DNA from: Pelagomonas calceolata
Lineage: Eukaryota
Direction of reading: 5' to 3'
Assembly: GCA_918797485.1 (NCBI GenBank)
Contig: CAKKNE010000006.1
Location: forward strand, 3,286,001 to 3,350,000
DNA: 64,000 bases
Below are positions 1 through 55,401 of the stretch, piece by piece. The notes under the pieces were generated by a model that worked only from the letters and a program-made list of their open reading frames with translations, searched no databases and had not been told where the DNA came from. Numbering within the stretch: position 1 is the first letter of the stretch; each line of letters opens with the position of its first letter. The translations under genes and the position numbers were made by a program.

Positions 1-231
1 GAGTGCAGAGTGCAGCGATAGTGCCCAGATGGCTTCACAGCGTCGCAAGCAAATGGCCCAAAAAACGAGGTAGCGTGCTTGACACACTAGGAAAAAATGC
101 AAAAACCGGACTCTAGACCAGCATTGATGCCCAGCGGCCTGTAAGACACTAGCAAACAAGCCCTCGGGGCTGCCCGAATAGGATACGCCGGCTGCCCCAC
201 AATTCAAGGCGCCAGCCATGACGACGAGTCC

Positions 232-1248
232 ATGAGGCTGCTGCTGGCCTATGTGATCACAAAAGCACTGGGAGCCACGGTCACGCTCGACAGCAACGAC
301 GTGCGCCACGCCTTTGTGGGCGGCGGGTCCGGGCGCGTCGCGGCGCGCACGCGCGCGGCGCCGCCCGAGCCCGGCTGCGTCGAGCGGCGCGTCGGGGACA
401 CCCACCCGGAGCTCGGCAACACCGACGACGTCTTCGTCCGGCGCTGCGGCCCGCCGCCCGTCACGAACGCGACGCGGGTTGCCTTATGCGTGCCCACGCT
501 CTATGGTGCGTATCTCAGGGCGCCTTCGACGATGCGCTGGGCCGCGGCGTGGCTTGAGCACTATAGAAGCTTGGGCGTCGCCCACTTCTTTGTCTACGCC
601 GCGGCGCCCGTGCGAGGGCTGGACGCCGCCGACGTCACGTTGCTGGACGTGGCGTGGCTCGGCGGCTGCCGCGCGCTACCCAAAACGCACCACGCGCGGT
701 GCGCGTACACACAAAACCGGAGCCTCGTCTACTGGGGCCAGAACTGGGTCCTGAACGACTGCCACCAGCGCGCGGCTGCCCAAGGCTTCGGCTGGGCGCT
801 CGCGGTGGACCTCGACGAGGTCCTCGAGCTCGGGCCGAACCGCACGTTGGCGGACCTCGCCCGCGATCCCGTCGACGTGCACACCTTCGGCTCCTCGGCC
901 GAGCGGCCGCGCCCCTGCGGCGCGCCGTGTGCCGCCGGCGCCGCGCCGCCTCCCGCGCGGCCGCATTGCCTCCCGCGGTACTGCGGCGACTGCGAGCGGT
1001 GCCTCGGCCATCGCGGCCGGCGAAAGCACCTCTCCCGCGTCGCGCGCGTGCACGGTGCGAACATCCACTTCGTCTCGCCCCGCGCCTGCGCGCCGCCGTG
1101 CCAGGTCCGTGACCACGCGGCGACGAACGCCTGGCTTCGGCACTTCGGCGGCCGTAAGTCGCGGTCCGGGATGCGGTCGCTCCGTATCACGGACGGGTGC
1201 CCGAGGACCTACTGCGAGACGGCTGGTTGGATGGGCCCCCAGCAGTAA
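232..1248 (+). CDS. Secreted/Golgi glycosyltransferase, GT92 (DUF23)/GT2-like
   Basis: Signal peptide; 'WLEHYRSLGVAHFFVY', 'QNWVLNDC' and DxD motif 'VDLDE' typical of GT92-like proteins. Confidence 0.65.
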   Translation: MRLLLAYVITKALGATVTLDSNDVRHAFVGGGSGRVAARTRAAPPEPGCVERRVGDTHPELGNTDDVFVRRCGPPPVTNATRVALCVPTLYGAYLRAPSTMRWAAAWLEHYRSLGVAHFFVYAAAPVRGLDAADVTLLDVAWLGGCRALPKTHHARCAYTQNRSLVYWGQNWVLNDCHQRAAAQGFGWALAVDLDEVLELGPNRTLADLARDPVDVHTFGSSAERPRPCGAPCAAGAAPPPARPHCLPRYCGDCERCLGHRGRRKHLSRVARVHGANIHFVSPRACAPPCQVRDHAATNAWLRHFGGRKSRSGMRSLRITDGCPRTYCETAGWMGPQQ

Positions 1249-1547
1249 TCTGGTACGGTGACTAGTGAGTGGAGATCCGGGGGAGACACCGCGCGTCGCC
1301 GATTCATCGGCGGCGGGCGCGTGCCGCGTTTTTTATAGCAGCATACCTCCTTCCAAGCAGAGCCGCCTCGGCAAACCCCCCGCACAAGTGTATGTCTCCA
1401 CGGAGCTAATGTAGACATACTAGATTTTTCACACAGAGCAAAGTTAAAACTGGGCAGCCTCCAGGCTGTGCCGTTCACCACTGTTCAAAGAGGCATGCAT
1501 TCGGTGTCTGGGCTGCTGAAAGGGCAGCTCTCCGACCGCACAAACAC

Positions 1548-2877
1548 ATGAAGGACCATCCCCCGCGGCGCCGCCCGGCGGCGCTCCTGCCCCGACTCCT
1601 TCTCGCCGCGCCCGTCGCGGTCTTCATGGTGCTCTACGCGCGCACCGAACGAACGCGACGACCGGAAACCACGAAGGCGGGCCTCATCTATTTAAGAATC
1701 GCGGACCCGCGCCACCGCCAGGACGCGTTCCGCGCGAGCTGGCCGCCGTGGCTGCCCGCGCTCGAGGCCTCGGCGCGCGCGAACGCGCGGAGCGTGACGT
1801 ACTATTTTATCGGCGCGCCGGCGAACGTGACGTGCGTCAACTGCGTCGAGATTCCATTGGACCTCGCCGGCCTGCGGGCGCGCGTCGCGAAGTATCTGGG
1901 CGTCGCCGACATGGAAATCAAAAGCGTCAAAAATAAAATCTGCGACCTCAAGCCCATGTGGCCCGTGCTCTTCCCCGAGGTCAGCGCGCGCCACGAGTGG
2001 GTCGGCTTCGCGGACGCCGACGTGCTCTTCGGGGACCTCGCGGCCGAGGTCGACCTGCTGACGGCGTCTGATGATTTGCTCGTGCCCTCGAGCTGGCACC
2101 CCTACCCCCTGGCGAACGGCAACTTCATGCTCTTCCGGTCGACGGCGCGCGTGCTGCAGGCCTTCCGGGGCGCCGGCTGGCGCGAGGCGGTGCGCTCGCC
2201 GGGCTACTCGGTCTTCGACGAGTGGCACGGGCGCGGCTCCGCGACGGACTTCGGCCACGCGCTGCTCGAGATGCACCTGAACGGCAAGCTCCGGCCGAAG
2301 CCGACGAGCCGCCTGTTCCTGCAGGACGCGGTGTCCGGCGGCCGCGCGCTCATGGAGCGGCCCGCGGCGCTGCGCGCGACGTGGGCCCGCGGCCGCCTGC
2401 GCGTGGCGTACCGGGGCCCGTGCTACTGCTCCAAAGACGTCGTCCCCCACTGTGTGGAAATCAACCAGTGTGCCGGGTGCACTCATGAAGTCATTTCTCG
2501 GCAATGAGGCTGCCGTGCTGGCTCCGTCGAGTGGTGGGAGACCCATACCGCCACGCCGTTGAGAAGGCGTCGCGTCGATGGCGTGGAGGTCGACGCGACG
2601 ATTCAGCAGAACACGCCGCAAAATTTTGATTTTCACACAGGTCCCCCAGTTCGCCATCGCGCACTGCTCCGAGTGCGTCTTCCGGGCGGGGGCGACGCCG
2701 GACGTCACGGTCGCGCGGGACCTCGAGGTGCTCGCGTACCACATGCTCTACACGAAGCCTTGGATCGGCCGGAAGTACGCCGTCGCGCCGGCGCTGCGCG
2801 ACTGCGAGGCGTTCGCGCTCTGGAAGAGCGAGACGAGCCGCGAGCACCACCTAGAATGCGTCGACGCGCCCCGATAG
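1548..2877 (+). CDS. DUF6625-like type II membrane glycosyltransferase-like protein; join(1548..2441,2641..2877)
   Basis: N-terminal TM anchor; 'KICDLKPMW...WVGFADADVLFGDL' motif; removing intron 2442-2640 joins two ORFs in frame (KDV|VPQFAIAHC). Confidence 0.65.
2450..2640 (+). mobile_element. Introner element copy 1 (GT-AG intron 2442-2640, 199 nt, phase 0)
   Basis: TIRs ctgtgtggaaatca / tgattttcacacag; perfect 8-bp TSD gtccccca at 2442-2449 and 2641-2648. Confidence 0.95.
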
Positions 2878-3155
2878 CGTCGTAACGTATGAGCACCTTC
2901 TCAAACCCATCGGAGCCTAATCGGAGCCGACTCAAGTTCGGCGGCGTGATAGCATAATCGATTTTTTTACGACGGGGTCAAGGGGGGGTCCGATGGGGAC
3001 CGATTAGTTGCGGGGACGTCTCGATCTTGGCGGCGCGAGGAAGGGAGAGGGGATCACAGAGCACGGCCGCGGCGTCGGCTCCGTCGCCGTCGCCCCGGTG
3101 CAGCGACGCCTCTAAATCGCGGGTGATGGAATTGATTAACTCAAGTTGAAGTTTC

Positions 3156-3183
3156 ACTAATGTACCGCATGCGGTACATTAGT
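3156..3183. repeat. Perfect 28-bp palindrome
   Basis: actaatgtaccgcatgcggtacattagt equals its own reverse complement. Confidence 0.95.
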
Positions 3184-3257
3184 CTTACGCTAGCATCATG
3201 TAAGACACTAGCATGCTTGCGTCCTAGTCCAGCCGGACGGGTGGGCCCGGGGGGAGC

Positions 3258-3330
3258 GGGAGGGGTACGGGGGACCCTGCGACGTAACTAGCCTGAGCCT
3301 GAGCTAGCCTGAGCCTGAGCCTGAGCTAGC
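3258..3330 (+). repeat. Dispersed repeat B: G-rich head plus (GCCTGA)n tail
   Basis: gggaggggtacgggggacc..gcgacgtaactagcctgagcctga; related copies at 15663-15710 and 24685-24730. Confidence 0.85.
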
Positions 3331-3369
3331 AATCTCAGCTGCCCGTGGGACAGAAACGCGCATTTTACA

Positions 3370-4731: not shown

Positions 4732-4941
4732 CCAGCGAGGCTGCCTGCTGCCTCGTCGGTGCAAAAACGCGTTACACCGGCACGGGGCAGCTTGCAAAAC
4801 CGATGAAGACACGCTAGTAGACACACTAGCTTTGCTTGCCCGGAGCATCATCCGAGCATGAGATATTGCTGTGCAGCGCAGGCATTGCTGCTTGGCTTTA
4901 TGCTAAGGACTAGCATGTGGTGAGGAGGTCGCGCGGTCTTT

Positions 4942-5790: not shown

Positions 5791-5817
5791 AGTAGTAGCG
5801 CCAACACACAGGGACGG

Positions 5818-7544: not shown

Positions 7545-10500
7545 ATGAAGGCGCGCCGCAGGAGCCGCCTCGCCGCGCTCGCGCTGGTCGTCGGCCGCGC
7601 GGCCGCGCAGACGCCGACCGCGTCTCCGACCTTCGAGACGTGGACGCCGACGTCGAAGCCGACGGATCGTCCGTCCAACACGCCGACGACCGGCGCGCCG
7701 ACGTACTGGACGCCGGCGCCCTTCGCGGCGCCGCCGGACGACTACGACCGCGACACGTTCGACCACGACCCCGGCACGTGCGGCAACTACGCGCCGAACG
7801 AGGTCTACACGGCGGAGGCGCTCGGGCTGAAGGGCGCCTACGCACTCGCCAACGACGGCGTGGACGGGGACTGCTGCTACGAGTACGTCCACAACGACTG
7901 CACGCACAACCCGACGGGCTTGCCGACCCTGGTGCCCACCGCGCTCCCGACAACCCAGCCCTCGGCGCTGCCCACGGTCGAGAAGCCGACGCCCATGCCG
8001 GTCTCGGACCCGACGAAGGTCCCGACGACCCTACCGACGTCGACGCCGACCTCGGCGCCGACGAAGGCGCCGACGAAGGTCCCGACGTCCCTCCCGACAT
8101 CCGTGCCGACGTCGGAGCCGTCGGAGGCGCCGTCGCCGGCGCCGTCGAAGGTCCCGACGGGCGTTCCGACGGAGCAGGACCCGACACCTTTGCCGACGAG
8201 CCCACCGTCGGCGGAGCCGACGTTAATCCCGTCTCCGACGCCGACGACGCCGCCGTCGTCGGCGCCCTCAGAGGCGCCGGTACCGGCGCCCACGAAACCC
8301 CCCACATCCATACCGACCACTCTGCCTACTTCGGAGCCGACGCCCACGTTCTCGCCGACGCGCACCCCGACGACCGTGCCGACGCCGGTCCCAATCTCCA
8401 AACCGACGCCGGGACCGTCAGCCGTGCCGACTCTCGTCCCGACCTCGTCGCCGTCGGCAAAGCCGACGTCCGAGCCGACGAAGTCGCCGACGACGATCCC
8501 GACCTCGCTGCCGACGGCGAGCCCGACGCCTTCGCCGTCGGCACCGCCGACCTCGGTGCCGACGTCGCCGACGTTTTTGCCAACTCCCCTCCCGAGCTCG
8601 GTGCCGACGTCGCGGCCGTCCGCCTTGCCGACGGCGTCCTGGTCGCCGACTGACTTGCCGACGTCCGTGCCGACGGCGCAGCCCCAGGTCTCGGCCAAAC
8701 CGACGGGGGTGCCGACCACGGTCCCGACGAGCGAGCCGACGATCCCCCTGCCGACGTCCGTGCCGACGGGCATCCCGACACCGGACCCGTCCGTGTCGCC
8801 GACGCCCGCGCCGACCGTGCAGCCGACGAACGGCGACTGCCTCGAGAAGATCACGGACTTCTGCCAGTGCACGTACGTGCTCTTCGAGGTCTCGCACACG
8901 CTCGCGCCGACGCCGGCGCCCACGACGGCGGTGCCCTCGCCGGGCCCGACGCCTGCGCCCACGCCGGTGCCCACGCCGGCGCCCACGCCCCGGCCCTCGG
9001 AACAAAAACCCCCGGGCGCTCCCGATCCGACGCCGAAGCCGACGCGGGTGCCGCGGCCCAGTCCGACCCGGGCCCCGACGAACGTGCCGACCTCGGTCCC
9101 GACGACGCCGCCGTCCCCCGAGCCGTCCGCCGTCCCGACGACGATGCCGACGTCCCGCCCGACGACCACCCCGACGCCCGCGCCGACGCCTCTGCCGACG
9201 CTCCCCCCGACATCCGTGCCAACGTCCATTCCGACGCCCGCGCCGATCCCGGTGCCGACGAAAATCCCGACGAGCGTCCCGACGTCGCTCCCGACGAGCG
9301 ACCCGACGGGCGTGCCGGTACCCGTCCCGACGGGCGCGCCGACGTTACCTCCGACGAGCGCTCCTTCGGCAAGCCCGACCTTCGACAGCTTCGCCCCGAC
9401 GGCCATGCCGACGACGGGAGCGCCGACGGTGAATCCGACGCTCGTCCCGACGTCCGTGCCGACGACCGAGCCGACGTCAGCGCCGACGAAAGTGCCCACC
9501 GCGCAGCCGTCGCTCGAGCCCACGTGGCAATCCCAAGCTCCAACCAAAACCCCGACGTCCGTGCCGACGACCGAGCCGACGTCCCAGCCGACAAGCGTGC
9601 CGTCCGGCGTGCCGACGAGCGCGCCGACGTCCCGGCCGACGCTGCCGCCGTCGCCCGTCCCGACGCCGTCGCCCACGGCCATGTGCCCTGCCATGGCGTG
9701 GCTCGAGGGCGATATGACGACGACCGGCTCCATGACGGCCCGGACCCGAGGGGCTCGAGGGGCTCCATGGACTGCGCACGAGGGCCCCGAGGCCATCACC
9801 AGCGCGGAGGACATCCGCGCCCAGGGCGGGCTTCTGGTCCTCGACCACAACAGGAATTGGGGCATCAAGGCCACGTGCTCCAACAACGCGGCCAAAAGTT
9901 GCGAGAGAGATGAGGATTGCGATCCCGGCAACACATGCGAGGCCAACGGCTGGGAGGGCGGCGTCAACCCGGCGAGCGGCATCGACGCCTGCTGCCGCTT
10001 CGTGCAGACGACGTGCCCGACGCCGCTGCCGTCGTCCGCGCCGACGTCGCCGCCGTCGCCGAGCCCGACGCTGCTGCCGTCGACGACCCCGACCAGCGTG
10101 CCGTCGAGCGTGCCCACGGTGCCGCCGTCGGAGACGCCGACGTCCGTCCCGACGGCCGAGCCCTCGGGAACCCCGACGATGATGCCGACGCCGCGGCCGA
10201 CGTTCACGCGCTACCCCTCGCCCGTGCCGACGATTCCCGCGCCCTCGCCCATCCCGACGAGCGTGCCCACGCCCTGGCCGACGACGGCGGTGCCCTCGCC
10301 GGGCCCGACGCCCGCGCCCACGCCGGCGCCCACGCCGGCGCCGACGAGCTGCCGCTGCGTCGCGTACTACGGCGTCAACCGCAACGTCGGCAACTTTGCG
10401 TTCCGCGACGACGGCCTCGTCTACGGCAGCCTGCCCGCGGTCAACCCGGCGTCGGAGCACTACGACCTCGCCTGGGCCGCCGGCGCGACGCTCAAGGACG

Positions 10501-11341
10501 GCTTCGACTGGGACGACTACCTGGCGGCGCGGGAGCACTTCTCCACGATAGCCACGAAGCAAGCGAACGCGGCCTCCTTCGCCGCGAAGAACGACTACGC
10601 GCCGCTGGGACCGGGCGCCGCGGGGAAGAACGGCGTGATTGCGAACACCGGGAACATCACCGCGGCAGAGCTCGCGCTGCAGGACGGGGGAACGACCCCC
10701 CCCAACAAGTACAGCTACAACATCACGGACATGGACAAGCGGTGCATCTACCGCATGGAACCGGAGCCGTCGGCCGCGCCGACGCCCAAGCCGTCCATCC
10801 CGCCGGGCGTGGCGGCGCCGACGCTCGCGCCGACGGTCACGCAGGCCGTCGTCGAGGTCTCGGCCGCGGTCGTGCTCACGGGCATCGACCCCACCGACTT
10901 CAACTCCGACCCGCAGCAGGTCGAGGCCTTCGCGCAAACGATCCTCGCGACCCTGCCCGCGGAGCTCGCGGGCGCCGAGGTCACGGACATCCGAGCCAAG
11001 TCCGCGCGTCGGCGGCGACTCCAAGCGGGCAGCGTCGAGGTCGAGTACACGATCGTCGTCCGACAGGACGCGACTACCGTGTCAGACGGCGGCCAGAGCA
11101 TCTTCAGCGACATTACGACGTCGCTTTCCGCGGCCGTGTCGAGCGGCGAGTTCCTCCAGACGCTCATCGAAGAGGCGGCCGCGGCGGGCGGGTCCGCCGC
11201 GATGGCGTTCATGACGATCGACGTCGACGTGACGGCGTCGACCGCGGCGATCAGTTCGGCGACCCTGACGCTCGTCATCACGACGCCGGCCCCCGTGGTG
11301 GCGACGCCGGCCCCCGTGGTGGCCCCGGCCGCCGCCGCCGC

Positions 11342-11372
<31 letters not shown>

Positions 11373-11507
11373 AGCGACGGCGGCCTGCTGATCATCATCA
11401 TCGTGGTCGTCGTCGTCGTCGTCATCGGCGGCGGCGCGGCGGCCTTCTTGGTGATGAAGAAGGGAGGCCGAGGCGCCGCCAAGATCGAGGCGTCCCCGCA
11501 CAACTAA
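7545..11507 (+). CDS. Large mucin-like type I membrane glycoprotein (Pro/Thr/Ser repeats, Cys-rich islands)
   Basis: Signal peptide from ATG 7545; long runs of xPT/xPS tetrapeptides; RRRL motif; poly-Gly linker followed by hydrophobic TM and short tail. Confidence 0.85.
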
Positions 11508-11965
11508 ACAAGCCCCCGCCCTCCCCCCGGGGCGCACCGGCCGGCCCGGGCCCCTGTTACCCCCTGACCAAACACCCCCGAGAAAAAAAAAACCGAAACC
11601 CCCAGTTGCACCGTCTAACTAGTTTCACGCTACTAGCTACATCGATCAAGCTTGCTGTCTCCTCGGTGCATAGAACGACTGCGCGCCAGCGTTTGGACTG
11701 CCCCGACGTCGCGTAGTGGAAGTCTTGAATGACACTTGGTGCGGGCAGCCAGGTCGGCTTCCATGTCCTAAGACTCCTAGTTCTAGTGTCTTTACGGGCC
11801 GCTAGCCACGAGCACGCGCGGCGCGGAGCCCTGGAAGCCGCGGTAGGGGCGGTAGCTCCTCAAACTGCAGCTGAAAGAGGCTTGCGATTAAGCAGCAGTT
11901 TTGTCTTGTCGCACGCCGACGGGAAAGGAGTCGCCTGGGGCGCGGACACCGCCTCGTCTGGGACC

Positions 11966-13240
11966 ATGAAGCGCCTCCTCCTCGTCGTGGTCGGCGGCAG
12001 CGCCCTCGTCGCGCGACGCCCGACGACGATGCGCGCGATGCAACCAGAGGCGCGCGCCCTTCGGACGAGGATCAAGACCCAAACTAAAATAAAACGGACG
12101 CTCGTGACGTTAGGAAGGGTCGCGCTGCCGTCCATGATCGCCACGGGCCTCGGCTTTGAGTACTACGACAATTTAAGCAGCTTCATCCAGGCGAACTGGT
12201 TGGATGCGAACTCCATTAAATTCTTGAGCAGCGACGAGATTCAATTTTTGCCGTCCTTTTTAACGGTGATCTCGTTATTATTTTCCATATTGGCGGGGAG
12301 CGCGTACTCGAGCCTCTACGCGCAGCAGGAAGCTATCTACTTCGCTCTGTATGCCGAGGTCTCGGAAGCGAAGTCCCTGCTGGAGCAGATGGCGCTGGTC
12401 TGCGCCGGCCGGCCCTTTTATAGGGACGCGCTGCGGGCGATGCGCGCCTACGTGAAGCAGGATCTGAGGAGACTGGACGTCGCGCCCGCGGATTTGATGG
12501 CGCGGCCGCCGAACGAGGACCCCCTCGAGGCCATCATGTACCTCACTTCTGTTGGGGTCCCGTCCGTCGTCTACGAGACGGTGCGCGACCTGCGGCAGGC
12601 GCGGGGGAGGAGGTTGGGGGCGATGCAGCGGAAATTTCCCCGGCTCGGCATCTTCCTCCTCTATTTACTAGCGCTGCTGGAGCTGGCGGCGTTCCCGCTC
12701 CTGGGCGCGGGGACAACCATCTCAGCGCCCTCGACGATCTTACTGGTCCAGGGCGCGCTGTTCGGGGGGTCAGCGCCTGTGTGGAAATCAACCAGTGTGT
12801 CGGGTGCTCATTTCTCGGTGATGACGCGGCCGTGTTGGCTCCGTCGAGCGGTGAGGAAGGGCATCGCCACGCCATCGAGCAAGCGTCGCGTCTATGGCGT
12901 GGAGGACGACGCGACGATCAAACGCGACGTAAAATTTTGATTTCCACACAGGTTGTGCGGCGCCACCACGTTGGTGTTACGCATCATCCAGGAGCTCTGG
13001 CGCACGTCGGGCGGCGCCTTCAACGTCGACGACGTGTTGCAGACCATGGTGCGGGGGCTGGCGGACGAGCTCGACGGCCGGGCGGAGCGCCTCTCGGAGG
13101 ACGCCTTTCCGGCGCCCGACGCCGCTCGGGGCCTGACGCCGGAGCAGCAGCGCGCCTTCGAGGCGCTCGACGCGGCGGACGCGGCGGCGCCGCGGAGGCG
13201 GTGGTGGCGGCGCGGAGGCGGTGGTAACGGCGGAAGTTAA
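11966..13240 (+). CDS. Multi-TM membrane protein, DUF4239/bestrophin-like, possibly plastid-targeted; join(11966..12768,12952..13240)
   Basis: Signal plus Arg/Thr-rich transit-like peptide; hydrophobic helices; splicing restores ALFGG|LCGATT. Confidence 0.55.
12777..12951 (+). mobile_element. Introner element copy 2 (GT-AG intron 12769-12951, 183 nt, phase 2)
   Basis: Intact TIRs; GT donor exactly 8 nt upstream of left TIR; TSD diverged (gtcagcgc vs gttgtgcg). Confidence 0.9.
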
Positions 13241-13254
13241 CTTGAAGTCATAAA

Positions 13255-15360
13255 TTATCGGTCACGGCCGCCGCCGACCCATCTCCGCGAGTCGTAGCGC
13301 GCGGCGCCCGCCTCCGCCGCGCGGCGCAGCGCCCGGGCTTCGCGGGAGACGGCTTGCGCGTCGGGCCAGGCGCGGCCAGCCATTGCCGCGACGTCGGCGG
13401 CGGAACGGAAGGCGCGGAGCGCGTCGAGCGCGTCGGCGGCGAGGCCCGCGGCTTCGGCCGCCGCGGGCGACGCGCCGAGGCCCTCGCGGGCCAGCGCCTG
13501 TGTGGAAATCAACCGGTGCGTCGGGTGCTACGCGAACGCGCCGTAAAATTTGAATTCCACGCGGGCCAGCGCGTCGCGCCACGCCAGCGCGTGGAAGAGG
13601 GCCAGGCCGTGCGGCGTGCCCCGCGCGCCGAGCGTCGCGCGGGGCAGCACGAGGCGCTCCCGGGCCGCGCGGCCCGCGGCCGCGGCCGCGAGCCCCGCCG
13701 CGCGCCGCGACGACGCGGCGCGCGGGAGCGCCGCCGCGAGCGCCGCCGCGACGTCGCCGGCCTCGAGCAGGTCGTCGACGCCGTCCAGGGCCTCCGCCGC
13801 GGCGTCCGCCTCCGCGCGGTCGGAGACGAAGCCGTGCTGCGCGCGCAAATATGCGTCGCGCCGCGCGACGGAGCACTCGGGCTGGACGTACGACACCGTG
13901 AGCGGGGCGCCCGCCTCCACTTTCCGCTGCGTCCAGACCTCGGCGAGGCCCCCGGCCGTCGTCAGCGCGACGCACGAGGGTTGCGGCGAGTCGTTCAGCA
14001 AACTCCTCAACCGGTAGAGGCCGGACTCGAAGGCGTTGAACTGCCACTTCTGCTCCAGCGTCGCGCCGTGCAGCTGCTCGATATGTAACGACGGGAGCGC
14101 CGCCGTGGGGTCCGCGATCGTCGCCTGCGCCTCGCGTGATAGGAGAGGCGCCTCGAGGAGCAGCAGCGTGCCGGCGTCGAGGTCGCGGGCCGCGGCGAGG
14201 CCGCGGCCGCCGCCCGTGGCCGGCGCGCTCACGAGGCGCAGCGCGGGGTGCGCGTAGAGGGGCGCGTAGCCGGGCGCGAAGGCCGCTAGGCGCGCGCAGG
14301 CGACGGCGGACGGCACGGGCACGGGCAGGGGCTCCGGCGGCGGCGCGGGCGGCGGCGGCGGCGGCGCGACGCCGTCGTCGTCCGACGACGAGCCGCCGAA
14401 GAGCGCCTCCGCCGCGGTCGCGCGGGCGAGGCCGACGCAGAAGCCGCAGCCCGCGGGCGGCACGCGCTCGGACAGCGCGCGCTCGACGGCCGCGGACGCG
14501 TGGTCGAGGCTCCAGGCGACGAGGACCAGCCGGTCCGTGGCCGCGACCAGCCGCGCGGCGACCTGGGGCCCGACGACGTCGGCCGGGTCGATCAAATTCG
14601 TCGCCGCGCCGCCCTGCGCGAAGGCCCGCGGCGCGGCGCCGGCGAGCGCCCCGAGCGCCGGCGCGTTATCTGCGGGCCCGACCCAGGCGAAGGCCGACTT
14701 CGCCCCGAAGCGCACGACGAGGCCCGATACGTTCGCGTCGTCCTCGTCGCGCACGGAAAAGCGTCGCTCCTCGAAACCTGGAGACGGCGCCATATCAAAG
14801 CTCTGCACCGTCCACGGGATTTTGATGATGGACGTGGACCGCAGCTCGACCTCGTCGAAGGCCTCCACGTAATTCGTGCGCTCGAAGCCGAGGGACGCGA
14901 AGAGTTTTAGGGAGGCGGCGTTCTCGGAGGCGATCTTCGCGACGAACGTCTCGAGATGGAGCGCCTCGCGGCCGTAGCGCAGCAGCAGCCGCACGGCCTC
15001 GCCCCCGAAACCGCGGCGCCGCCGTTCCGGAACCATGACGTCGACCTCGGCCGCGAGCGGCTCGTCGGGGACGGTCAGGAACGCGTTCACGTCGCCGACC
15101 ATCGCATTCGTGGGGAAGCGGTCGTCGCCATTCTTGAAGCACTGCGCCCGGTCCAAAACGATGAACGTGAGCTTCTTGGCGTCGTCGCGCCAGCTCTTCT
15201 GGTTCTCGACTTCCTCGTCGAGCGTCAGGCGCTCGCTCGCCGTCAGGGCCAGCAGGTCGTCGTCCTGCATCCAGGCGTGGTAGCGTTTTACGTACTTTTC
15301 CTTGTAGGGCACGAGGACGCAGCGTCTTCCTACGAGCACGGTGTCCTCGTTGAGGCGCAT
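13255..15360 (-). CDS. NAT9: NAT9-like GNAT acetyltransferase fused to PAC4-like and SET domains; complement(join(13255..13497,13573..15360))
   Basis: N-terminus 'MRLNEDTVLVGRRCVLVPY...YHAWMQD...LTASERLTLDEE...QKSWRDD..KLTFIVL' matches NAT9; SET motifs 'GRGLAAARDL', 'SLLNDS', 'LTVSY'. Confidence 0.75.
13498..13564 (+). mobile_element. Introner element copy 3, internally deleted, antisense to host gene (GC-AG intron 13572->13498, 75 nt)
   Basis: Left TIR intact, right TIR decayed (tgaattccacgcgg); perfect TSD gccagcgc at 13490-13497 and 13565-13572. Confidence 0.9.
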
Positions 15361-15662
15361 GGTTGCTTTTGTGTGCGCTGCGCGAGCTCTCGCGTCGCTG
15401 GGAGCACTGCTGCCTCGCTGGTAGGACGCTCTCCGTAGGGCAAACGGTGCGCGGCTCTTTTTTTGCGAGAACTGCTTCGACCCTCACGCGAGCGGAACTC
15501 AAGCGATCCCTCCGCTGCAAAGCACGACAATGTGAGGGCGTCTATGGCCTTTGTCGAGGCACGCTCGTGGTATCGTACCTAGGTATACCGATACCGATAT
15601 CAGTATCCCTACGGTATCTCTAGGCTCTATCTCTACTAGTAGGCTCTATCTCTAGGCTAGTC

Positions 15663-15710
15663 GGGAGGGGTACGGGGAACCCCGCGCGTCGTGACTAGCC
15701 TGAGCCTGAG
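15663..15710 (+). repeat. Dispersed repeat B copy
   Basis: gggaggggtacggggaaccccgcgcgtcgtgactagcctgagcctgag. Confidence 0.8.
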
Positions 15711-15748
15711 TCAGATTCCTACCTCGAGCGTCCAGTGCCGCTACGTTG

Positions 15749-16095
15749 TTAAGCGTGATGGCGGGGTGGAAGAAGAGAGGCATAAGCCGCGACGGACTCG
15801 TCCTCAGACGCAGTCTCGGCGTCGAAGTAGTCGTCGGGGAGCGTCTCGAAGCGCTCGTCGTCCGCCAGCTTCGAGAAGATCATGCAGAAGTCGTCGGCCG
15901 TGATGGCCGCGTCGATGAGGTCGAAGTGGAGCACGGCCTTGAGCTCGCGGTACGTGAGCGCGAGGAGGTCGTCGGCGGTGCGGAACGGGGCGCGCGGGTC
16001 GTTCTGGTTCGCCTATGCTGAGGCGGCGACGCCGTTGGCGCGGGCGCGGCCGCTGGGCGTCGAGGCGGCGCCGTTGCTCACTACGGACGTGTAAT
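15749..16095 (-). pseudogene. Possible degraded gene fragment
   Basis: GC3-biased frame interrupted by in-frame TAG at 16013-16015; the two minus-strand ORFs on either side share a frame. Confidence 0.3.
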
Positions 16096-17452
16096 GTTGT
16101 TGTTTGCTGTGTCTCCTGCTTGTGTTCCAGGGGTCGCGGCGATGGCGTGGGGGGGGGCTCACTTTCTTGTTCTTGGCGTGACGCGCGTCGCCGATTCGCG
16201 CGTCGATTCGTCGTTGGCGGACGCGGGCCGCGTCTTTCACAATAGCATACTTCCTAAGCATAACCGCCTCGGCAACGCCTGGGACTACATGAGAGTGTTC
16301 GCGAAGAAGGGCGACGACGGGACCGCCGCGTCGCGCATCGCGGCGGACCTCGCCAAGGCGCTCGCGCCGGCCGGTGGGGACAAGGTCGCGACCGCGGACC
16401 TCTGGGACGAGCACTTCGAGAAGGTGTACCTTCTTGCCGATGCCGTCATGGACCGCGTCGTCGCCGAGGCGTGAATGCATCGCTTCTGGAGGGGTTAAGA
16501 GGCGCTTGCTTGTACTACGAGTACCCTGGAGGGGGGACAGCGCGTCGCCGACGTCATCGGGTGGCTGCTTTCTAGTGTCTTACAGACAGCTAGCTAATTT
16601 TCAGCACAGCACGGAGGACGAAACGGCCCACGCGGGGTATAACATACTAAGACATCAGAAACGATTAACAGAAAATACACGCCTTTAAAATCTCGCGACA
16701 CAGCGACTAGAGACACCTGAAATCTAAAAAGTGACATCTGAAAGTCAAAGCCATCGCGGCGCGCGTCGACGCGGCGGACTATGAGCGGCTGTTGGGCGAC
16801 CGGCTCCGCGCCGAGGGCTTCGCCGCGCCCCGGAAGAAACGCAGCCGTGCCTCGTCCGGCGACGACGACGCGGCGTTGTACATGTACGTACGAGGAGCGG
16901 AGTTGCCCGCGCGGAAGCGCAGCACGCGCGACGCGGCGAAGAAAGCTAGCTCCAAATGGATCGGCGCCTGAGCGGTCCGAGCGGACGTCCACGCGACAGC
17001 TTCCCCCGCCATCATGATGGTGGCGTCGACGTCAGTATCAAATAATTAAATTTTTTGGCCAGTACGTGACCCATGTTGTTTGCTGTCTCTCACTGTTGTT
17101 CTTCACCGCGCGTCGCGGATTCGTCGGCGGCGTCTTTCACAATCCTACTAGACATCCTTTGTACCAGGACGAGTTTGCTGTGCTAGTCCTAAAGAACAAC
17201 GAGCTAGCGGAGTGAGACACTAGAGCTCACAAGGTCTCCTCGAGTCTAAGGAGGCCCAAAGCACCGCCCCTCTCGCACCAGTGCCGCGGTAACGCCGCCT
17301 GCGAGCCATACGCCATCGCCGCGTGAGATCACAGAGATCATACCCAGCCTCCAGCGACGACGCAGCATAAAACGCCGTCTTGAGCCGTAACTTTGCCAGA
17401 CTTCAGACCTCAGTGGCCTGCACGCAAGCGCCACCGCACGCGGGGCGCCACC

Positions 17453-18422: not shown

Positions 18423-18620
18423 TTTGGGCTCGTCCTGCTTTGCTGTCGTGCTGCAGCCTGCAGCGTTGCAGGAGCGCTGTTTAAAGCTATGCCAGCCGTT
18501 GATCCACGCGTGCCGTGGATGCTGCGGTCCTGTAGACCGGTAATTAGTTGTGTCGGGTTTCAACCGTGCGTTACACACGACAACATCGCCCGATGAATGG
18601 GCCAAGTTTGCTAGGCATCC

Positions 18621-18643
18621 CTAGTGTCTTACAGGCCGCTAGC
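18621..18643 (-). promoter_or_regulatory. Conserved intergenic motif A (GCTAGCGGCCTGTAAGACACTAG), representative copy
   Basis: Eleven near-complete copies in the window, all outside the inferred coding regions; function inferred only. Confidence 0.6.
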
Positions 18644-18906
18644 GCGATTTCCTAGCGGGAGCCCTGGAAGCGTCTTCACACTAGCGCGTCCTAGCACCGT
18701 GACAGCCCACTAGTGCTAGCACCGTAACATGATAACCGTAACAATATATTCTGCAGGATAGCTCCCCCGGAACCCCCCTACGTGCTCAAAAAAATTGACA
18801 AGGCTCGCAAAAAGCTTTTCGAGGTTCGCTACGTACGGGTGCGGAGTTGCTAAAAGCCCGAAAGATCTTTTTGTCTGTCACACAAACACAGGTACATCTT
18901 ATAAAG

Positions 18907-24501: not shown

Positions 24502-24684
24502 GGCCTGCTGCATTGAGTGTGCAGGGCTACTCGTAGAAAAAACGGGCCCTGCAATGGATGCTGCACTACTCGTAGAGCCTCCGAACTCAATGTGTGTCCA
24601 CTCTTAGGGCCACTGAGCTGAGCTTTGCAATCGCCTCGCAAGCTAGCTAGCGCCTGTAAGGCACTAGCATTCCAGCGGGAAGCC

Positions 24685-24730
24685 GGGGAAGGGTACGGGG
24701 GACCCCGCGACGTAACTAGCCTGAGCCTGA
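24685..24730 (+). repeat. Dispersed repeat B copy
   Basis: ggggaagggtacgggggaccccgcgacgtaactagcctgagcctga. Confidence 0.8.
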
Positions 24731-24954
24731 CATCTAGACAAGGTCCCGGCCGCGCCAGGCGACGCGCGCCCGCCCCACGCCATCGACGCGGGGACTCGAG
24801 TGCTACGCTAGAGCAGCAATGCGCGCCCCCGAGTACGCCGTCGACGCGGAGTGCTCCTAGCTTATCCCAATCGCACCGGCTTTACGCAACTACTACACCA
24901 ACCAGAACGTGTCAATGGACCGCCGGAAGGCGCCGATGCTCTTTCTGTCCACGT

Positions 24955-25491: not shown

Positions 25492-26201
25492 CCTTACCGA
25501 GCGCCTCGCGGCTTTCGGTGTCTTAAAAGCTTATTTATATACCGGCGGTCCCGTTGCGAGATAACCTGTGGAGACCGACGCGGGTGAGGGCTTTGATTGG
25601 CGAGTGGCGAGCGCGCGGTCGCGGCGGTACGGTGGTGGGCGCGGCCGAGACGACGTCGGAGAGCGTCCCCGGTGTTTCACCCTCTCAGAGCGGCGACGCG
25701 CCGCGTTTCGGGCGGCAGCGTGCCCCGCGGGCGTCGAGCAGTCCTGCTGCGCGGCGATCGCCGGTGGCGCTCGCTCGCCGCAGGGCTAAACTCGAACTCG
25801 CTGGTAAGCGATTTGGTTAATCTCGGACGTACCGCCGCGAGGCCAGCGCAGTCTTCTCTCACGCGTAGTAGATGGGTCGTAGAATGTATAGCACGCGGCT
25901 GCTGACCGGTTGTCGGCTAGGCGACGGTCTCCAGGCCCGATAATTATCGAGCTCGCCTACCAAGCCCAGCGCTCGCTGGTTCGGGTTCTTGAATCGTTTT
26001 GGCTCTAGAACGAGCTAAGATTTGTCCTAAGAGCAAGCTGGAGGCCTCTTCAATGGCCTGGACACTTCAGCGGGCGATCTGAAATACCCGCACGCTGGAT
26101 TTTCGACTTTCGCAGTACTTTCGCGCTGTGCCGGCAGCCCTGCAGGCAATTACGGCAGCGAAATTGCGTATCGGGACATCGCGCAAGCACGCTGCCCAGC
26201 C

Positions 26202-27545: not shown

Positions 27546-27910
27546 GGTCAATGTGTGTAAGTTGTTGAAGGCGTTCGCGTCGATGGCGTACGGGGGGAGC
27601 CAGCAGATGTGCCGGCGGCGGAGTCGAGGGGTCGTAAACTTGAGCCAGGCGATTCAAGACGACGAGACTGGCCGAGTGTACTGGCTCCTTAGGCCTCGTG
27701 GGGGAGATTATCTCTATTATTGTTACGGTGCTAGGACTAGTGGCGCGGGTCTGGGCTAGTTTAGAGACACACTAGCATTTCACGAAGGTTTGCCTGGCGC
27801 CGCACGGGTCAAGCTGCGGGCTGCCGGGCAGCATCGACAGCACAAGTCCACCACAGCTCGGCTGGCGCCATAGCGGAGCAGCACAGATGCATCGATACGT
27901 GTGAGCCGGG

Positions 27911-34230: not shown

Positions 34231-34699
34231 AGGGTGATTTTTGGTGGGGTCACACATAAACTACGTTCAAACTTTTCTTTTTTCGCGTCGCGGCGACGGC
34301 GTGGGGCTCTCTACACCCACGAAGCGCCGGGAACTCTGCTCCCCCGCCCTCCCGGGCGCCGGACGACCACGTCTCGATGCCGGGCCCATGCCTTTCGAGG
34401 TCTGGTCCTATTGTACCCGCCCCCTAGGTGCTAGCGCCCCCCAAACCCGAGGACCAGCTATCATCTATCAGCGCGATCTATCCGTGCGCGCAGCTAGCGG
34501 CCTGTAAGACACACTAGCATCAAAAATCAGCGCCGCGGCTCCAGCGCGCAAAGGACTGCTTGAAGCGCTCGTGCTGTGCTTTGGCTGAGCTAGGCTTGCT
34601 CGCGCATTGCATGCTGCAGCGGCAGTGGGACAGCAGCTCACGCCATCGCCGCGACGCGCCACAGGGGCAGCCCTTACTTAGGTTAAGCACCAAAGCCAG

Positions 34700-40808: not shown

Positions 40809-41801
40809 TTACGACAAGCACGCGTCTGCCCGCCTGCTGAACTGGTGCTGCTCCTCGCACCCAGGGAGTATAGTGGCGTTGCAAGTCTTGGCGCCTCGCG
40901 CAAGAGAGGTGGACAGCAGGGTAATTCTAAGACTCCACTCGTCACTAATCTCAGGATCAAGCCACAGCGCTACGTAGCGCTACGCAACTTGCAAGAGCAG
41001 CTTTGCTTGCTTGCTAGTGTCTTACAGGCCGCTAGCGCGCGGGATTTCCTAAACGCGGGAGCCCTTTGCTTGCTTGCTAGTGTCTTACCAACCTAGCTCG
41101 AGTCATCCAGATTATCCAAAGGGGGAAAGGATTTCTGTGCACGAGGCGAAAGGAAGTCAATCCTCCCCTCGTCCGACCGCATCCATCATCGGCGGCGCCG
41201 CTCGACGCCGCGACGATGAACTTCCCGTCGGAAAACCAATCCGCGACCTCGCTCAGGCGTCCGCGGCCACGGATGTATGACCGAGCCGCCCTTTTGCCGC
41301 TCCGCGCGCCGCGTCGCCGGCGCCGACGTGTAAAATCCAGTGGCTTTCACACAGCCCGTGTGCGAGGCGTCACGGCGTCGGGCCAGCGGTCGCCGGTCGG
41401 CGCGATGAAGGTCAGAGTAATGCGAACTCGTTACGCATTCGTCCCAAACTACGGTCGTGGACGTGGCCCTATCAATTGGCCTGCATGCCCAGCAAAGCGC
41501 AGCTTTGCCAAAGCCATCAAAAATACGACTCATTACGCGCCGAACGACCCTTCCGAGGCTTCGAAACGACGTGTGTCTGCAAACCAAAACAAAAACGCCA
41601 ATGGTTTGCGCGCGCGGCGATGCGGCGATCGCGAGGCAGACCGCAGTTCCAGACGGAAACACTGGTCGAGTAGACGTCCTCCTTATGTAAAGTCCGCCCG
41701 ATTATCGTGCAGACAGAGCTACACGGGGTAGTGTGGAGACACACTAGGATCAAGCTTCTTGTGGAACAAACTGTTGGCTGCCCGAGAACCACACGACGCT
41801 C

Positions 41802-46433: not shown

Positions 46434-46830
46434 TTTTAAGGGGTGCGGAGTTCGCCTCCGAGCGCCGGTCGCGCGGAGTCGGCCTCCAGGCGGGCGAAGT
46501 TTTCCTTCGGGGCCGTGGAGCTGCCTCCGGCGATCGGCGCGCGGAGTCAAACGCGCTGACGGACGTCGCGCGCGGAGTTTCACTCCGGCGACTGGTTAGG
46601 TCCTGTTCGCAGCGGGAGTACACTCCCACGCCTTGATCCAGCTGCTGAACGCTGGGTATCGCTGTCTGGAGTTAACCTCCAATCTTTACAGGTTTTCCGC
46701 GTCCGTTGCGCGCGTTCAGAACTGTTTTTGTGGCCCGCTGGCGCGATTATTTTTTTCGAGCTTAGCGGCTTGTAAGACACTAGGAAACAAAAACCGAGAG
46801 TCTATCACGTACAATCATTACACAGGCGCC

Positions 46831-49727: not shown

Positions 49728-51211
49728 TCACGACAGGAAGTCGTCGTCGTCGGCGTAGGCCTCCGCCAGCGCCGCGGCCGTCGTGCGCGCCGTCAGCGTC
49801 GTCGTCACCACGACCAACAGCACGCCCGCTATGAGTAAAACGGCGTCCTCCGCCACCGGGAGGCCGTTGCGCTTTGCCAACAACAAATGTACCAAAGGAG
49901 GCAGCGCAAATGATAAAGTGCACACCGCGACGGCGCCCACTAAACCGACGACCAAGGCGAAGGCCGGCATGGCGTAGGCGACGAGCGCCGCGGCGACGGC
50001 GACGAGGCCTCTTACCACAAGCCGACGGCACCGCGGGATCCGCGCCTCGACGATCTCGCCGCAGCCCACCAAACCAATAGGAATCGACGCCACGCAGGCC
50101 GCGGCCATGGCCAACCGTACCAAAGTAGGAGTAACCCCCATGGGGAGGGCGTCCAAGACGTTGCCGGGCACCGAGTCGTCTGGTGCTGGCCCATCATAAA
50201 GTCGGGCCACGCCGGCGCCCACGATCACGTACGCCGCGAACGCCGTAAACAAAGCGACTCTTTGTGCTGCGGCAAAGCGCTCGGGAGCGGCCATCGATGC
50301 TTCCAAATGCAGCGCCACGGGCGCGACCTGTGTGCACCCGACAAGTCCTCACTAAGTCATTTCTCGGCGATGACGCGGCCGTCCTGGCTCGGTCGAGCGG
50401 TGAAGAACCGGCATCGGCACGCCATCGAGCAGGCGTCGCGTCGATGGCGTGGAGGACGACGCGAAGATTCAGCACGAACGCGCCGTAAAATTTTGATTTC
50501 CACACAGGTCGCGACGCCGAAACAAAAGGCCATCACTCCCACCGCGGCCCCCACATCAGCGACGGAGTCGGGCTTCGTCCAGTCGAAGGTGCCGCTCTGC
50601 GCCCATCCCAATCTTTCCCTTCTCAAAACGCCGTAGAGCGCGATGGCCGCGAGCGAGCAGGCGAGGGCTACCAACGCAGCAGCTCCCGCGGCCGCGAGCG
50701 AGCCGAAGTCGTCGACCAACGCGAGCGGTACGGCGGCCGCGGCGGCCAGCGCGACGTCGACGCCGAGCGGCAGTGCTAAGGGAGTAGCTCTCACGAAGTC
50801 GTGGAGCGCTACTAAATATGCCACAGCTACGCCAAACATCAAAACGAAGAAGACGGCCTCGACGACGCCCGCGACCGCCGCGCCACAGACCTCGCGGGTC
50901 AGCGCCGCGAGCGGGGACTCGCCGCCGCCTTCGTTAAATCGACGCAGCGCATCGGCGTCGAGGAGGTCGCGCGCCTGGATGAGCCGGCGCCCCGCCCAAT
51001 CATTCCACGCCAACAACGCGAGCAGCGCCAGTGCGCATGGCAATACGCCTCCGGTCGAGAATGCGTGCGGCACAGCGAGCACGCCTGTACCGATACAAAA
51101 CTTTAGCATCGTCGTCACAGCCCCGAGAAATGACGTGTTGCCCGTCTTGCTCCCGCTGCCGGCGAGTGGCAGGGTCTCGCTGGGTCTACGCGAGCCGAGT
51201 GGTTCCGGCAT
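49728..51211 (-). CDS. Amino acid transporter (AAAP/SLC36-38 family); complement(join(49728..50327,50516..51211))
   Basis: 'LKFCIGTGVLAVPHAF', 'LVVGLVGAV..CTLSFALPPL'; splicing gives FCFG|VAPVALHLEASM. Confidence 0.85.
50328..50507 (+). mobile_element. Introner element copy 5, antisense to host gene (GT-AG intron 50515->50328, 188 nt, phase 0)
   Basis: TSD ggcgcgac (50320-50327) / gtcgcgac (50508-50515); right TIR intact; left TIR shortened to ctgtgtg by a deletion. Confidence 0.92.
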
Positions 51212-51494
51212 TGCTGCAGCCTCGTCTTTGAGCACGAGTGGTTGCAAAATGTAGGGCACTGTAGCGAGAAAGCTGTTGTCACACCAGCAGGCTGCAACAC
51301 AACGAGGCGAAGAGTAATGTGGTGGCTGGGCGGCCTAGCATTACCTAAGCAATGTGTGTCAAAAACGCGACGAGTGAAAACGCGAAGAGCAGGGAGCTAG
51401 CGTCTGTGTAAGACACTAGCAATCATTCACATCTCTCCTTTGTACCTCTATTTCGTACCCTTACGAAGAAGACCGCAACAAAAAAAGACACTTT

Positions 51495-53348: not shown

Positions 53349-53785
53349 ATTGCTCTGCCCTTGGCTCTGGGTCGGTGCGACCGCAGCCCTTCGGGCAGCT
53401 TTGCAACGGCTGCGCGACGGCGTATGCGCTCGTGCGGCGAACGGCTGCCCTTTTGACCGCTGTCGCGCGCCCAGCGCGATGCCTCGGAGACCGCGTTGGG
53501 CTCGGCGGCCGAGCGCTACTAGGCTGGTCGACGGACAGGCCTCCCGGCCGCCCCTCCACGACTAGAGACGTCCCGGGGCAGCCCCGGCACGCCGTAGCGA
53601 GCGCCCACGGAGCCGTGCGGGTCGCGGAGCATTTCGAATGCCAGCCAGCCGAAAACTGGGCAGCCACGCGCACACCGCCGCGCACGATACGGCAGCACTA
53701 CGCCAGCCGCCGACACATACAGCCACCAGCGCGCCAGCAACGAGCAGCCGCACCAACCCCACCGGCAAATCAAACCAAACCAACC

Positions 53786-55115
53786 ATGGGCAAGTACACG
53801 GCCTCCGACGGCAAGGAGTTCGACACGAAGCGCGAATGGCGCAAGTACGAGATGCTCCTCATGTACACCTTCAAGGAGCAGACGGGCCACACCTTCGATA
53901 TGAAAAAGCCCGGAGACGTCAACGGCCAGCAATTTGATATGATGAACCTGACGAAGTAGGATCTCGGCGTCCCACGTCGGTGCCTTCACTTCCATACGAC
54001 TCGTCTCCAGGAGTGATGGCCGTGGGTGGTCTGTTTTTCGAATTTGGGGTCAATCGTGATGCTCCGCGCAGGTGCGAAGCGGTGGTGGCCGACAGCACGG
54101 ACATGGTCCAGATCGACGAGTGTATCGATTGCAAGGTGTTCCTCGGGGCCTCTGGTGAAAGTGTTTTTATCAGAGACTGCAAGGGGTGCACGTTCTATGT
54201 CGCGTGTAAACAACTCAGATTAAGGGACTGCCACGACTGCAAGTTCTCCCTGTATTCGCAGACGGAGCCCGTCATCGAGACGTCCGATGGGATCGTATTC
54301 ACGCCCTTCGCGGGAGGGTTCGACGGGCAAGAACAATGTATGCGTTCCGTGAATTTGGACCCTTCCATTAACTTCTGGTGGGGGATTTTTGATTTCAACG
54401 ACGAGGCGAAGACGGTCCGTGACTCAGTGTTGTGAATGAACTTGAACTTGATCCGGTGGAGACGATGGCGTCTTCATGAAGCCACGTCGCCTCGACGCCG
54501 TCGACGTGTCCGCGCGCGAGTCTACGCGTCTCGCGACCGCGTCGTTCCACGCAGGGCAAGAACTTTAAAGTAGTGAACGTGCCCATGGAGCCCTGGTGGC
54601 CGCTCGGTGAGGCTTCCCAGGTATGTGAACAGACCGCTCCCAATAGTGCGACGCTGCCTTCCACGCTCACTGATGATGGCGGTGGTCACGGCGGCCCGTC
54701 ACAAATGAACTCCTTCAAGATCGGCACGAGCGCCGAGGACGCCCAGAACAAGGTCGACTCGCAAGCGCCGCCGCCGCCGCCAGACTTGGAATTAATTCCC
54801 GACGAGGTCCAGAAGCCCGCGGCGGACTGGACGGCCTTCCGGGTCGGGGTTCGGTACGATCCTCCACTATTAGCTCTGGAGTGGAAAGGAAATGAGAAAA
54901 CTCTGAGGAAGGACATCCCGTTTCCCGAGGTCACGGAGTTGGCGGCTTTGGTGGCGGAGGTCGCCGACGACGAGTGCGCCGCCGCGGTCTTAGATCACAT
55001 GGTGAAGACGCACGGCGCGCAGTGGTTGGATTTTGAGAAGTTCTTCTCGAAGAAGCAGGTCTTACGGCTGGTGGACATGGTCCTCCAGGGCGGGCCGGAC
55101 TCGGTGGAGATGTAG
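53786..55115 (+). CDS. RP2: XRP2/TBCC-domain protein with C-terminal CEP19-like domain; join(53786..53955,54072..54414,54555..55115)
   Basis: 'KKPGDVNGQQF', 'VQIDECIDCKVFLG...SVFIRDC...ACKQLRLRDC...PVIETS', 'WWGIFDFN'; two GT-AG introns restore the frame. Confidence 0.75.
54415..54554 (+). repeat. Repeated intron family 2, copy a (140 nt GT-AG intron)
   Basis: Shares tcgcctcgacgccgtcga, gagtctacgcgtctcgcga and tcgttccac(g/a)cag blocks with intron 56396-56557. Confidence 0.8.
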
Positions 55116-55401
55116 GCATCGGTGGCGTAAGGTCTTTCCCTTTACCTTGTCGCGGCGACGGCCCGGGGACGCGTTTATTTTGCTAGTGTCTTACTGCGCT
55201 AGCCCACGCATACGCTGCTTTTGGATCGGCTTGCGCGCGCACGCTACGGGCCGCGCAGCACTTGGAGAACTGTGGGACGTCAACGTTTTGCTATCTCTTC
55301 CGCACGAGACCGTTGGTTTTGCTGCAAATAGCGCGAGCGCACGCATTGCATCTCACACTGTAGCCTGCATCTATTCGTCGCAGCAGTCAAGGGCTCGCAC
55401 C

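Follow-up and report, generated by a model that had tools for sequence, protein, structure and literature searches.

A CTAG-ended, 24-bp palindromic motif in the gaps ahead of many Pelagomonas calceolata genes: a putative site for a chromatin-organising factor

The sites of the yeast general regulatory factors (Reb1, Abf1, Rap1 and Cbf1) are intergenic, lie near the starts of unrelated genes, occur in either orientation and number about 1,000 or more. Passages of two published studies describe these sites as the centres of nucleosome-free regions (PMC5880240) and the factors as blocks to RNA and DNA polymerases alike (PMC5052057). Here we analyse a motif that resembles the yeast sites in its location, orientation and number. 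It was noticed in a 64,000-nucleotide stretch of Pelagomonas calceolata DNA (contig CAKKNE010000006.1, positions 3,286,001 to 3,350,000), hereafter the window, which is GC-rich eukaryotic DNA with about 35 genes. Pfam matches were obtained for 29 of 45 candidate open reading frames (ORFs), and the closest named relatives of an elongase encoded there are from pelagophytes. The 24-bp motif is real and genome-wide, and copies in both orientations stand in the gaps that precede many unrelated genes. It differs from the yeast sites in being longer (about 24 bp) and pseudo-palindromic, in having a dominant inner haplotype, in being inverted between lineages and in its stramenopile host, and the comparison does not extend to sequence.

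The cis-acting DNA of the pelagophytes, which are abundant primary producers of the ocean, is almost uncharted. A long, conserved, genome-wide site could serve as bait for the main chromatin-organising protein and as an aid to promoter design, and one may ask, given the length of the motif and the fact that it is inverted between lineages, how sites of this kind arise and move. The motif is apparently undescribed in the literature that we searched, to which two studies of pelagophyte chromatin and introners (Huff and Zilberman 2014; Huff et al. 2016) did not belong. In the accessible text of the P. calceolata genome paper (PMC9481584), the words "motif" and "intergenic" are absent from the main part and "CTAG" from the searchable supplement.

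The motif is an imperfect palindrome in which two inverted 9-bp arms flank a spacer of 5 to 7 bp. The sequence of the left arm is GCTAGCG(G/T)C; that of the right arm, read on the other strand, is GCTAGTGTC. The arm spacer, whose sequence is asymmetric, is 6 bp long in 98 of 137 sites (a 9+6+9 geometry) and elsewhere mostly 5 or 7 bp. Information is restricted to about 28 bp, with the background level reached on either side. Searching the window with a 12-bp core gave 13 sites, and the left GCTAG, which lay outside the search pattern and has a background of 1.9%, was present in 11 of the 13 sites found by the right half alone. Five window sites match the consensus with three or fewer mismatches, as compared with none in 100 shuffles. 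A weight matrix trained on metagenome loci only, with the window sites kept out, gave 15 window matches above 10 bits, 13 of them above 20 bits and all of them non-coding; five shuffled windows gave none above 18 bits. For the arms that the metagenome search pattern fixed, conservation was judged from the window sites only. Conservation is uneven: the left arm is retained in 11 of 13 window sites, and the inner positions are variable. A single inner haplotype is dominant (39 of 94), and at arm position 8 the commonest variant raises the symmetry of the arms (21 T versus 6 A or C, p=3e-6). A common upstream extension accompanies 8 of 139 sites and a CAAG-repeat tail six, and four pairs of copies lie within 150 bp of each other. 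No covariation was detected in the flanks of the motif sites, and the two full copies that were folded did so no better than shuffles (z=+0.5 and -0.6).

Our statements about the genome as a whole rest on 122 metagenome loci and on read depth. A strict-pattern scan of metagenomes found at least 124 further stretches that carry the motif. Of these, 122 loci were kept, with 128 matches and 126 distinct flank pairs; L017 and L102 were removed as duplicates ahead of the counts, and long flanks were obtained for just 80 loci. Since nearly all of these at least 124 stretches have unique flanks, the motif is genome-wide. In a DNA run of the organism, the depth over the motif bin at 41.0 kb was 43,742 versus about 570 for single-copy DNA, which suggests 1,260-1,740 near-exact copies in the genome, a very rough figure, as depth is not a direct copy number. 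The hypothesis that the motif specifies a non-coding RNA found no support: the window and 20 of the 122 loci gave no Rfam match, there was no tRNA match, and no RNA pile-up was seen over the motif. Poly(A) RNA reached a depth of 1.7 over the 41.0-kb bin on the strand free of the neighbouring gene, nothing comparable to the DNA pile-up, with the reservation that short matches are perhaps poorly placed. For comparison, an intron-repeat bin with ten times the DNA depth of the motif bin had poly(A) RNA depths of 164 and 239.

Viral contigs contained no match. A prokaryote collection contained four (L123-L126), all on marine metagenome-assembled contigs of 60-64% GC. These are probably mis-binned algal DNA, because L125 and L126 are identical around the motif and yet are filed as a bacterium and an archaeon. 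A protein that flanks the motif at a different locus (L058) clusters with a P. calceolata protein. Bacterial REP sequences are likewise short, dispersed, intergenic and present in many copies, but the motif lacks their long stem, and E. coli genomes contained no match to it.

To place the motif relative to genes, we called genes in the loci with a codon model that was built on the window genes and self-trained on the loci, and that recovers most window genes. The class of a junction was counted only where a gene was called on both sides within 900 bp. Called coding DNA contained none of 139 sites (130 in the loci and 9 in the window), which bears out, in the window and in the metagenome loci, the claim of an earlier note on the window that no site lies in coding DNA. 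For 46 of the 130 sites outside the window both flanks were called; 23 of these are divergent, 21 tandem and 2 convergent. Stricter gene scores gave divergent/tandem/convergent counts of 12/8/1, 8/8/1 and 7/6/1. The split is compatible with spacer length (p=0.34) and with one site for each spacer that contains a start (p=0.59); one site per gene start is a poorer fit (p=0.04), and a tandem share of 80% is rejected (p=2e-18). Convergent spacers are mostly too short for the motif (median 24-54 bp). By a hand tally of the window, sites are present in 10 of 14 tandem, 2 of 11 divergent and 1 of 12 convergent spacers (Fisher p=0.015), or in 8 of 11, 3 of 11 and 1 of 12, respectively, if the fragments at 15.7-17.0 kb are not counted as genes (p=0.086).

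These counts bear on the hypothesis put forward in the earlier note, under which the motif would act as a roadblock terminator or insulator at tail-to-head junctions. The window tally leans toward tandem spacers, three tandem sites have RNA 3' ends 57-197 bp ahead of the motif, and parts of a published study describe yeast general regulatory factors as roadblocks to RNA polymerase II (PMC5052057). Outside the window, however, half of the sites (23 of 46) are in divergent spacers, where no transcript arrives, and the stricter scores leave 7-12 divergent versus 6-8 tandem sites. Furthermore, the distance to stop codons is loose, and three window sites share one divergent spacer. The motif may still act as a roadblock or insulator at tandem sites, but as its defining job this role is largely refuted, and we regard a dedicated terminator or insulator as highly improbable. 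The comparison of junction classes genome-wide, run here on the metagenome loci, found no tandem enrichment beyond spacer length, an outcome that the earlier note had itself named as speaking against its claim. What stands is an orientation-independent intergenic site that is predicted to be protein-bound; tail-to-head specificity does not.

In contrast to the loose distance to stops, the distance to start codons is constrained. Among the called sides in the loci, 103 of 140 face a gene start. The distance from the motif centre to the ATG is 178 bp on one side (interquartile range 146-216, n=45) and 198 bp on the other (165-231, n=38; p=0.28), does not depend on orientation, and is tighter than the distance to stops (coefficient of variation 0.37 vs 0.69). 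Tandem spacers hold the two orientations in 12 and 9 cases (p=0.66). The flanking genes are functionally unrelated and belong to mixed Pfam families: matches were found in 19 of 90 flanking ORFs, for at least one flank in 8 of 23 divergent cases and for both sides at L077. The motif is centred in a low-CpG gap of about 400 bp.

Transcript ends near the motif were taken from ordinary poly(A) read ends, with the strand assigned by the usual library convention. At a distance of 28-32 bp beyond the motif, RNA 5' read ends pile up at 17251-17255 (in two runs) and at 27807 (in one), and RNA 3' ends fall 154, 197 and 57 bp short of it at three tandem sites. Five further 5' pile-up positions have no motif nearby, and base composition shows no transcript-start signature at a fixed offset from the motif. 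Thirteen RNA reads that run against the neighbouring gene start at 41044 (40985-41044); their source may be another copy or a short antisense transcript.

Among 120 loci, five pairs of homologous spacers from diverged lineages carry the motif in both members, where random placement among 8,000-16,000 spacers would give 0.45-0.9 such pairs. Orientation is kept in three of them (L002/L116, L104/L105 and L031/L056), whose flank identity is 0.36-0.63 (one block 0.89) against an unrelated baseline of 0.43. In the other two pairs the motif is inverted. At L022/L047 it lies 91 and 93 bp from a shared block; at L034/L113, a divergent gene pair, it is also shifted by about 45 bp. A decayed copy in L113 that had been seen by eye was rejected, because the weight matrix gave it at most 1 bit. 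Conserved blocks of about 70 bp lie directly downstream of the motif in the otherwise diverged spacers of L002 (1850-1910) and L116 (330-396), and of L104 and L105; none of these blocks has an Rfam match.

We propose, by analogy with the yeast general regulatory factors, that the motif is a putative site for an abundant dimeric chromatin-organising factor, and we give this proposal an even chance of being correct. An abundant, probably dimeric protein would bind the motif, would hold the gap ahead of the start nucleosome-free and would set the position at which transcription begins. In a tandem spacer a site would act for a single gene, in a divergent spacer for both. The anatomy of the motif, its spread, its absence from called coding DNA, its independence of orientation, its distance to start codons and its presence in the homologous spacers of diverged lineages were observed; protein binding, a dimeric state, the exclusion of nucleosomes and any blocking of read-through are inferences. 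New copies would probably be born by copying rather than by point mutation, through local duplication and flipping between the arms, and their original source was perhaps a longer mobile repeat.

Several observations weigh against this proposal. The motif is missing from 13 of 25 start-containing window spacers, and most promoters are without it. Only two transcript starts were seen, both from ordinary poly(A) read ends. Phasing of CpG or GC at the nucleosome period from the motif was null (best p=0.08, n=73). The variable arm spacing, modal in 98 of 137 sites as noted above, is loose for a rigid dimer. The gene calls in the loci come from our own codon model, with the Pfam support given above for 19 of 90 flanking ORFs. 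Since the junction classes fit plain spacer length, class alone cannot separate "promoter-side" from "anywhere untranscribed". In addition, the homologous pairs were ascertained by the presence of the motif in both members (one L002 copy excepted), and two of the pairs may be paralogues. The two copies of a pair are no more alike (motif identity 0.88-0.92) than unrelated copies are (0.88), so that descent in place is not demonstrated.

One could also envision that the motif has no function and is the relic, or one end, of a small mobile repeat, which spread by wide insertion, persists solely where it is tolerated, in untranscribed gaps, and re-inserts near old copies. A site of about 24 bp is too long to come about often through point mutation (27 bits or more, even when frequencies are floored). 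The dominant inner haplotype, the upstream extension and CAAG-repeat tail of a minority of sites and the four close pairs are all as expected of a relic, further CTAG-rich intergenic repeats lie close by, and the class counts fit spacer length. The motif is, moreover, like miniature inverted-repeat transposable elements (MITEs), Helitron ends and pelagophyte introner elements in being short and high-copy, with CTAG ends and a longer extension in a minority. A MITE carries a target-site duplication outside its inverted repeats, and a Helitron 3' end has CTRR followed by T, with a hairpin 10-12 bp upstream. However, no target-site duplication beyond CTAG itself was detected (134 sites, 252 boundary combinations, best z=2.1), and the motif lacks an A-T insertion context and a strong hairpin. 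A T comes after the terminal CTAG in 1% of 139 sites, contrary to the Helitron rule, and no significant Helitron-type hairpin was found in full copies. In most copies sequence likeness stops sharply at the arms, and the motif is kept where its flanks have diverged. Few comparisons bear on empty sites, and none was found among the matches listed for two wild metagenomes or between L003 and L102. Introner elements also differ, since those of the window are about 200 bp long and lie inside genes, whereas the motif is 24 bp and intergenic. Among the entries listed in the accessible part of the P. calceolata gene table there is one Tc1-like transposase and no Helitron or Harbinger gene. We consider a functionless relic unlikely. 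For the domesticated transposon end that the earlier note had offered, the extension shared by 8 of 139 sites speaks in favour, and the absence of a target-site duplication and of MITE or Helitron anatomy speaks against.

The flipped copies would also be explained if the motif were a loxP- or dif-type site of a tyrosine recombinase, active or domesticated. Such sites have two inverted arms around a fixed, asymmetric spacer of 6-8 bp. The 9+6+9 geometry with its asymmetric spacer and the inversion in two of the five homologous pairs suit this hypothesis, as does a 6-bp piece that stands between two CTAGs in both orientations (3 versus 2 sites). By contrast, the length of the spacer varies, the arms are shorter than recombinase arms, and no tyrosine-recombinase gene is among the gene-table entries just mentioned. 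Although domesticated Crypton recombinases serve as DNA-binding regulators in yeast, according to passages of one report (PMC3212892), we hold a recombinase site to be a very slim prospect. The 6-bp piece follows the last CTAG at 5 of 139 sites. It was noted at window 18611-18624 and in L003, L102, L034, L037, L064 and L065, and it appears as a 10-bp indel between the near-identical L003 and L102.

Another hypothesis, which we entertain as a tentative one, is that the motif marks sequence-defined replication origins, the bound factor recruiting or licensing an origin complex in promoter-side gaps from which forks leave both ways. The symmetric placement and orientation independence of the motif would suit origins. 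The chief evidence is strand asymmetry at four-fold coding sites, which in the window and the loci are C- and A-biased at the 5' ends of genes and become G- and T-biased at the 3' ends; a GC-skew gradient within genes is described for unicellular fungi in parts of a published study (PMC3315797). The raw skew effect is mostly this 5'-to-3' gradient, which is common to all genes, and the uncorrected contrast (p=0.003) was set aside for that reason. In an exploratory analysis, found after several tests and corrected for codon family and position in the gene, A+C at four-fold sites was higher where transcription runs away from the nearest motif (118 genes, +0.025) than where it runs toward the motif (81 genes, -0.032). 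This difference of about 0.056 had p=0.0002-0.0003 by gene-level permutation. The effect holds in the middle of genes (p=0.013), when complete genes alone are taken (p=0.035) and among genes whose own flanks lack a motif (30 vs 52, p=0.02-0.04), and its sign is that of the yeast leading strand as described in passages of PMC3459929. On the other side, two-fold sites showed the same sign with p=0.13, the first 400 nt of genes showed no effect (p=0.64), and a window placebo with random spacers gave p=0.18-0.26. When motif and non-motif spacers were matched by arrangement, p ranged from 0.05 to 0.94, and divergent spacers did not differ.

The motif is like the autonomously replicating sequence (ARS) consensus of budding yeast in being intergenic and in the yeast sign of the A+C excess on the strand leading away, a skew that the matched controls did not confirm. 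It is unlike that consensus in that it is not AT-rich, is pseudo-symmetric rather than directional and is denser; its frequency in the window, one per 4-5 kb, is high for origins. The factor that we propose as chromatin organiser may also have the marking of origins as a second role. In its fullest form, the hypothesis would make the motif a self-copying, invertible, 24-bp palindromic origin mark, with a binding protein that would open the chromatin on the promoter side and initiate forks there, which we find possible and rather doubtful. To our knowledge, an origin sequence of this kind would be the first outside budding yeasts. If this is true, then a stramenopile alga that is among the most abundant picoeukaryotes of the ocean would have sequence-defined origins; should the strand asymmetry hold genome-wide, it would provide a testable one in a lineage for which the literature that we searched describes none.

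All 11 window sites listed in the earlier note are present and read as described, with the amendment that the copy given as 133-153 begins at 130 and that its left GCTAG is not intact. The three GCGG(G)AGCCCT extensions that it reported were located at 11823, 18655 and 41055, and its six named divergent promoters (at about 7, 32, 48.6, 53.5, 57.8 and 60.9 kb) gave no weight-matrix match. The copy with the degenerate left arm (130-153, plus strand, 32.7 bits) is 79 bp ahead of the ATG at 232 and 62 bp from a degenerate copy with an extra AC (69-90, plus, 16 bits). A full copy at 3189-3212 (plus) occupies a long convergent spacer (2877/3370), followed by the element described below as repeat B, and a short palindromic partial copy at 4813-4830 (plus, below 10 bits) lies in a divergent spacer (4731/4942). 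The copy at 11783-11806 (minus), in a tandem spacer, is 154 bp past RNA 3' ends at 11611-11629 and 160 bp ahead of the ATG at 11966, with its extension at 11823-11834. Between two gene-like fragments, the full copy at 16572-16594 (minus) is unchanged in a wild contig. A full site that the earlier note had overlooked, at 17203-17223 (plus) near a Tim10-family gene (17453), is the one followed 28-32 bp downstream by the RNA 5' ends at 17251-17255. The tandem spacer with the full copy at 18621-18643 (minus) also holds an upstream extension (18655-18667) and the CTAG-flanked 6-bp piece (18611-18624).

Tandem spacers also contain the copy at 24646-24668 (plus), which is 197 bp past the RPL18a RNA 3' end at 24865 and is followed by repeat B, and the full copy with an extra AC at 34493-34518 (plus), 182 bp ahead of the ATG at 34700. 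The degenerate copy at 27755-27776 (plus, 12 bits) precedes by 32 bp the RNA 5' end at 27807 (8 molecules, one run). An exact consensus copy at 41013-41036 (minus), with an extension at 41055-41066, is 63 bp from a second copy at 41076-41097 (minus, 27 bits), a local duplication; in a wild contig, a 1-bp insertion at 41090 separates the left CTAG of this second copy from its conserved core. A symmetric variant with a perfect 7-bp inverted repeat, at 41727-41747 (plus, below 10 bits), is 55 bp ahead of the ATG at 41802. We assign these three to a single divergent spacer (40808/41802), because the intervening ORF at 41216-41731 has RNA at a depth of about 0.1 and, in a wild contig, carries indels that break its frame. 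The remaining copies, all in tandem spacers, are at 46761-46783 (plus), which points away from the gene start at 46433; at 51396-51420 (plus, full), 184 bp from the minus-strand ATG at 51211; and at 55182-55203 (minus), 57 bp past the RNA 3' end at 55126 and 198 bp ahead of the ATG at 55402. The junction placement claimed earlier holds in part only and fails for the sites at 3189 (convergent), 4813 and 41013/41076/41737 (divergent). Among the sites called partial, the one at 41076-41097 is nearly complete, whereas those at 4813-4830 and 41727-41747 score below 10 bits.

Other repeats and CTAG-rich elements were seen in the window. With the motif masked, CTAG is about four times denser in non-coding than in coding window DNA (54 in 14,250 bp vs 44 in 49,287 bp). 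Repeat B is a G-rich element of 45-50 bp with a CTAG end and CCTGAG repeats (3257-3330, 15662-15711 and 24684-24730). Each of the three faces the 3' end of a gene or fragment on the minus strand, two of them come after the motif, and the metagenome loci and viral contigs contained no match to it. A further repeat, D, is 70-140 bp long with a short hairpin and a CTAG-rich end, often lies 10-100 bp downstream of the motif and reaches 96% identity between loci (window 1255-1381, 16190-16275, 16500-16560, 17085-17150, 18691-18729 and 27721-27744; L041, L051, L069 and L073). An introner-like family of repeated introns of about 200 bp, with shared ends and very high DNA depth, is found at 2452-2640, 12777-12953, 29880-29990, 50330-50510, 62028-62437 and 62827-63015. 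The region 15749-16971 contains three short gene-like fragments (those counted above as 15.7-17.0 kb), which gave no credible Pfam match, and the RNA reads at 16375-16477 derive from a diverged paralogue. Finally, the highly expressed RPL18a gene has a 341-bp intron (25564-25904) in its 5' leader, with RNA 5' ends at 25933-25946.

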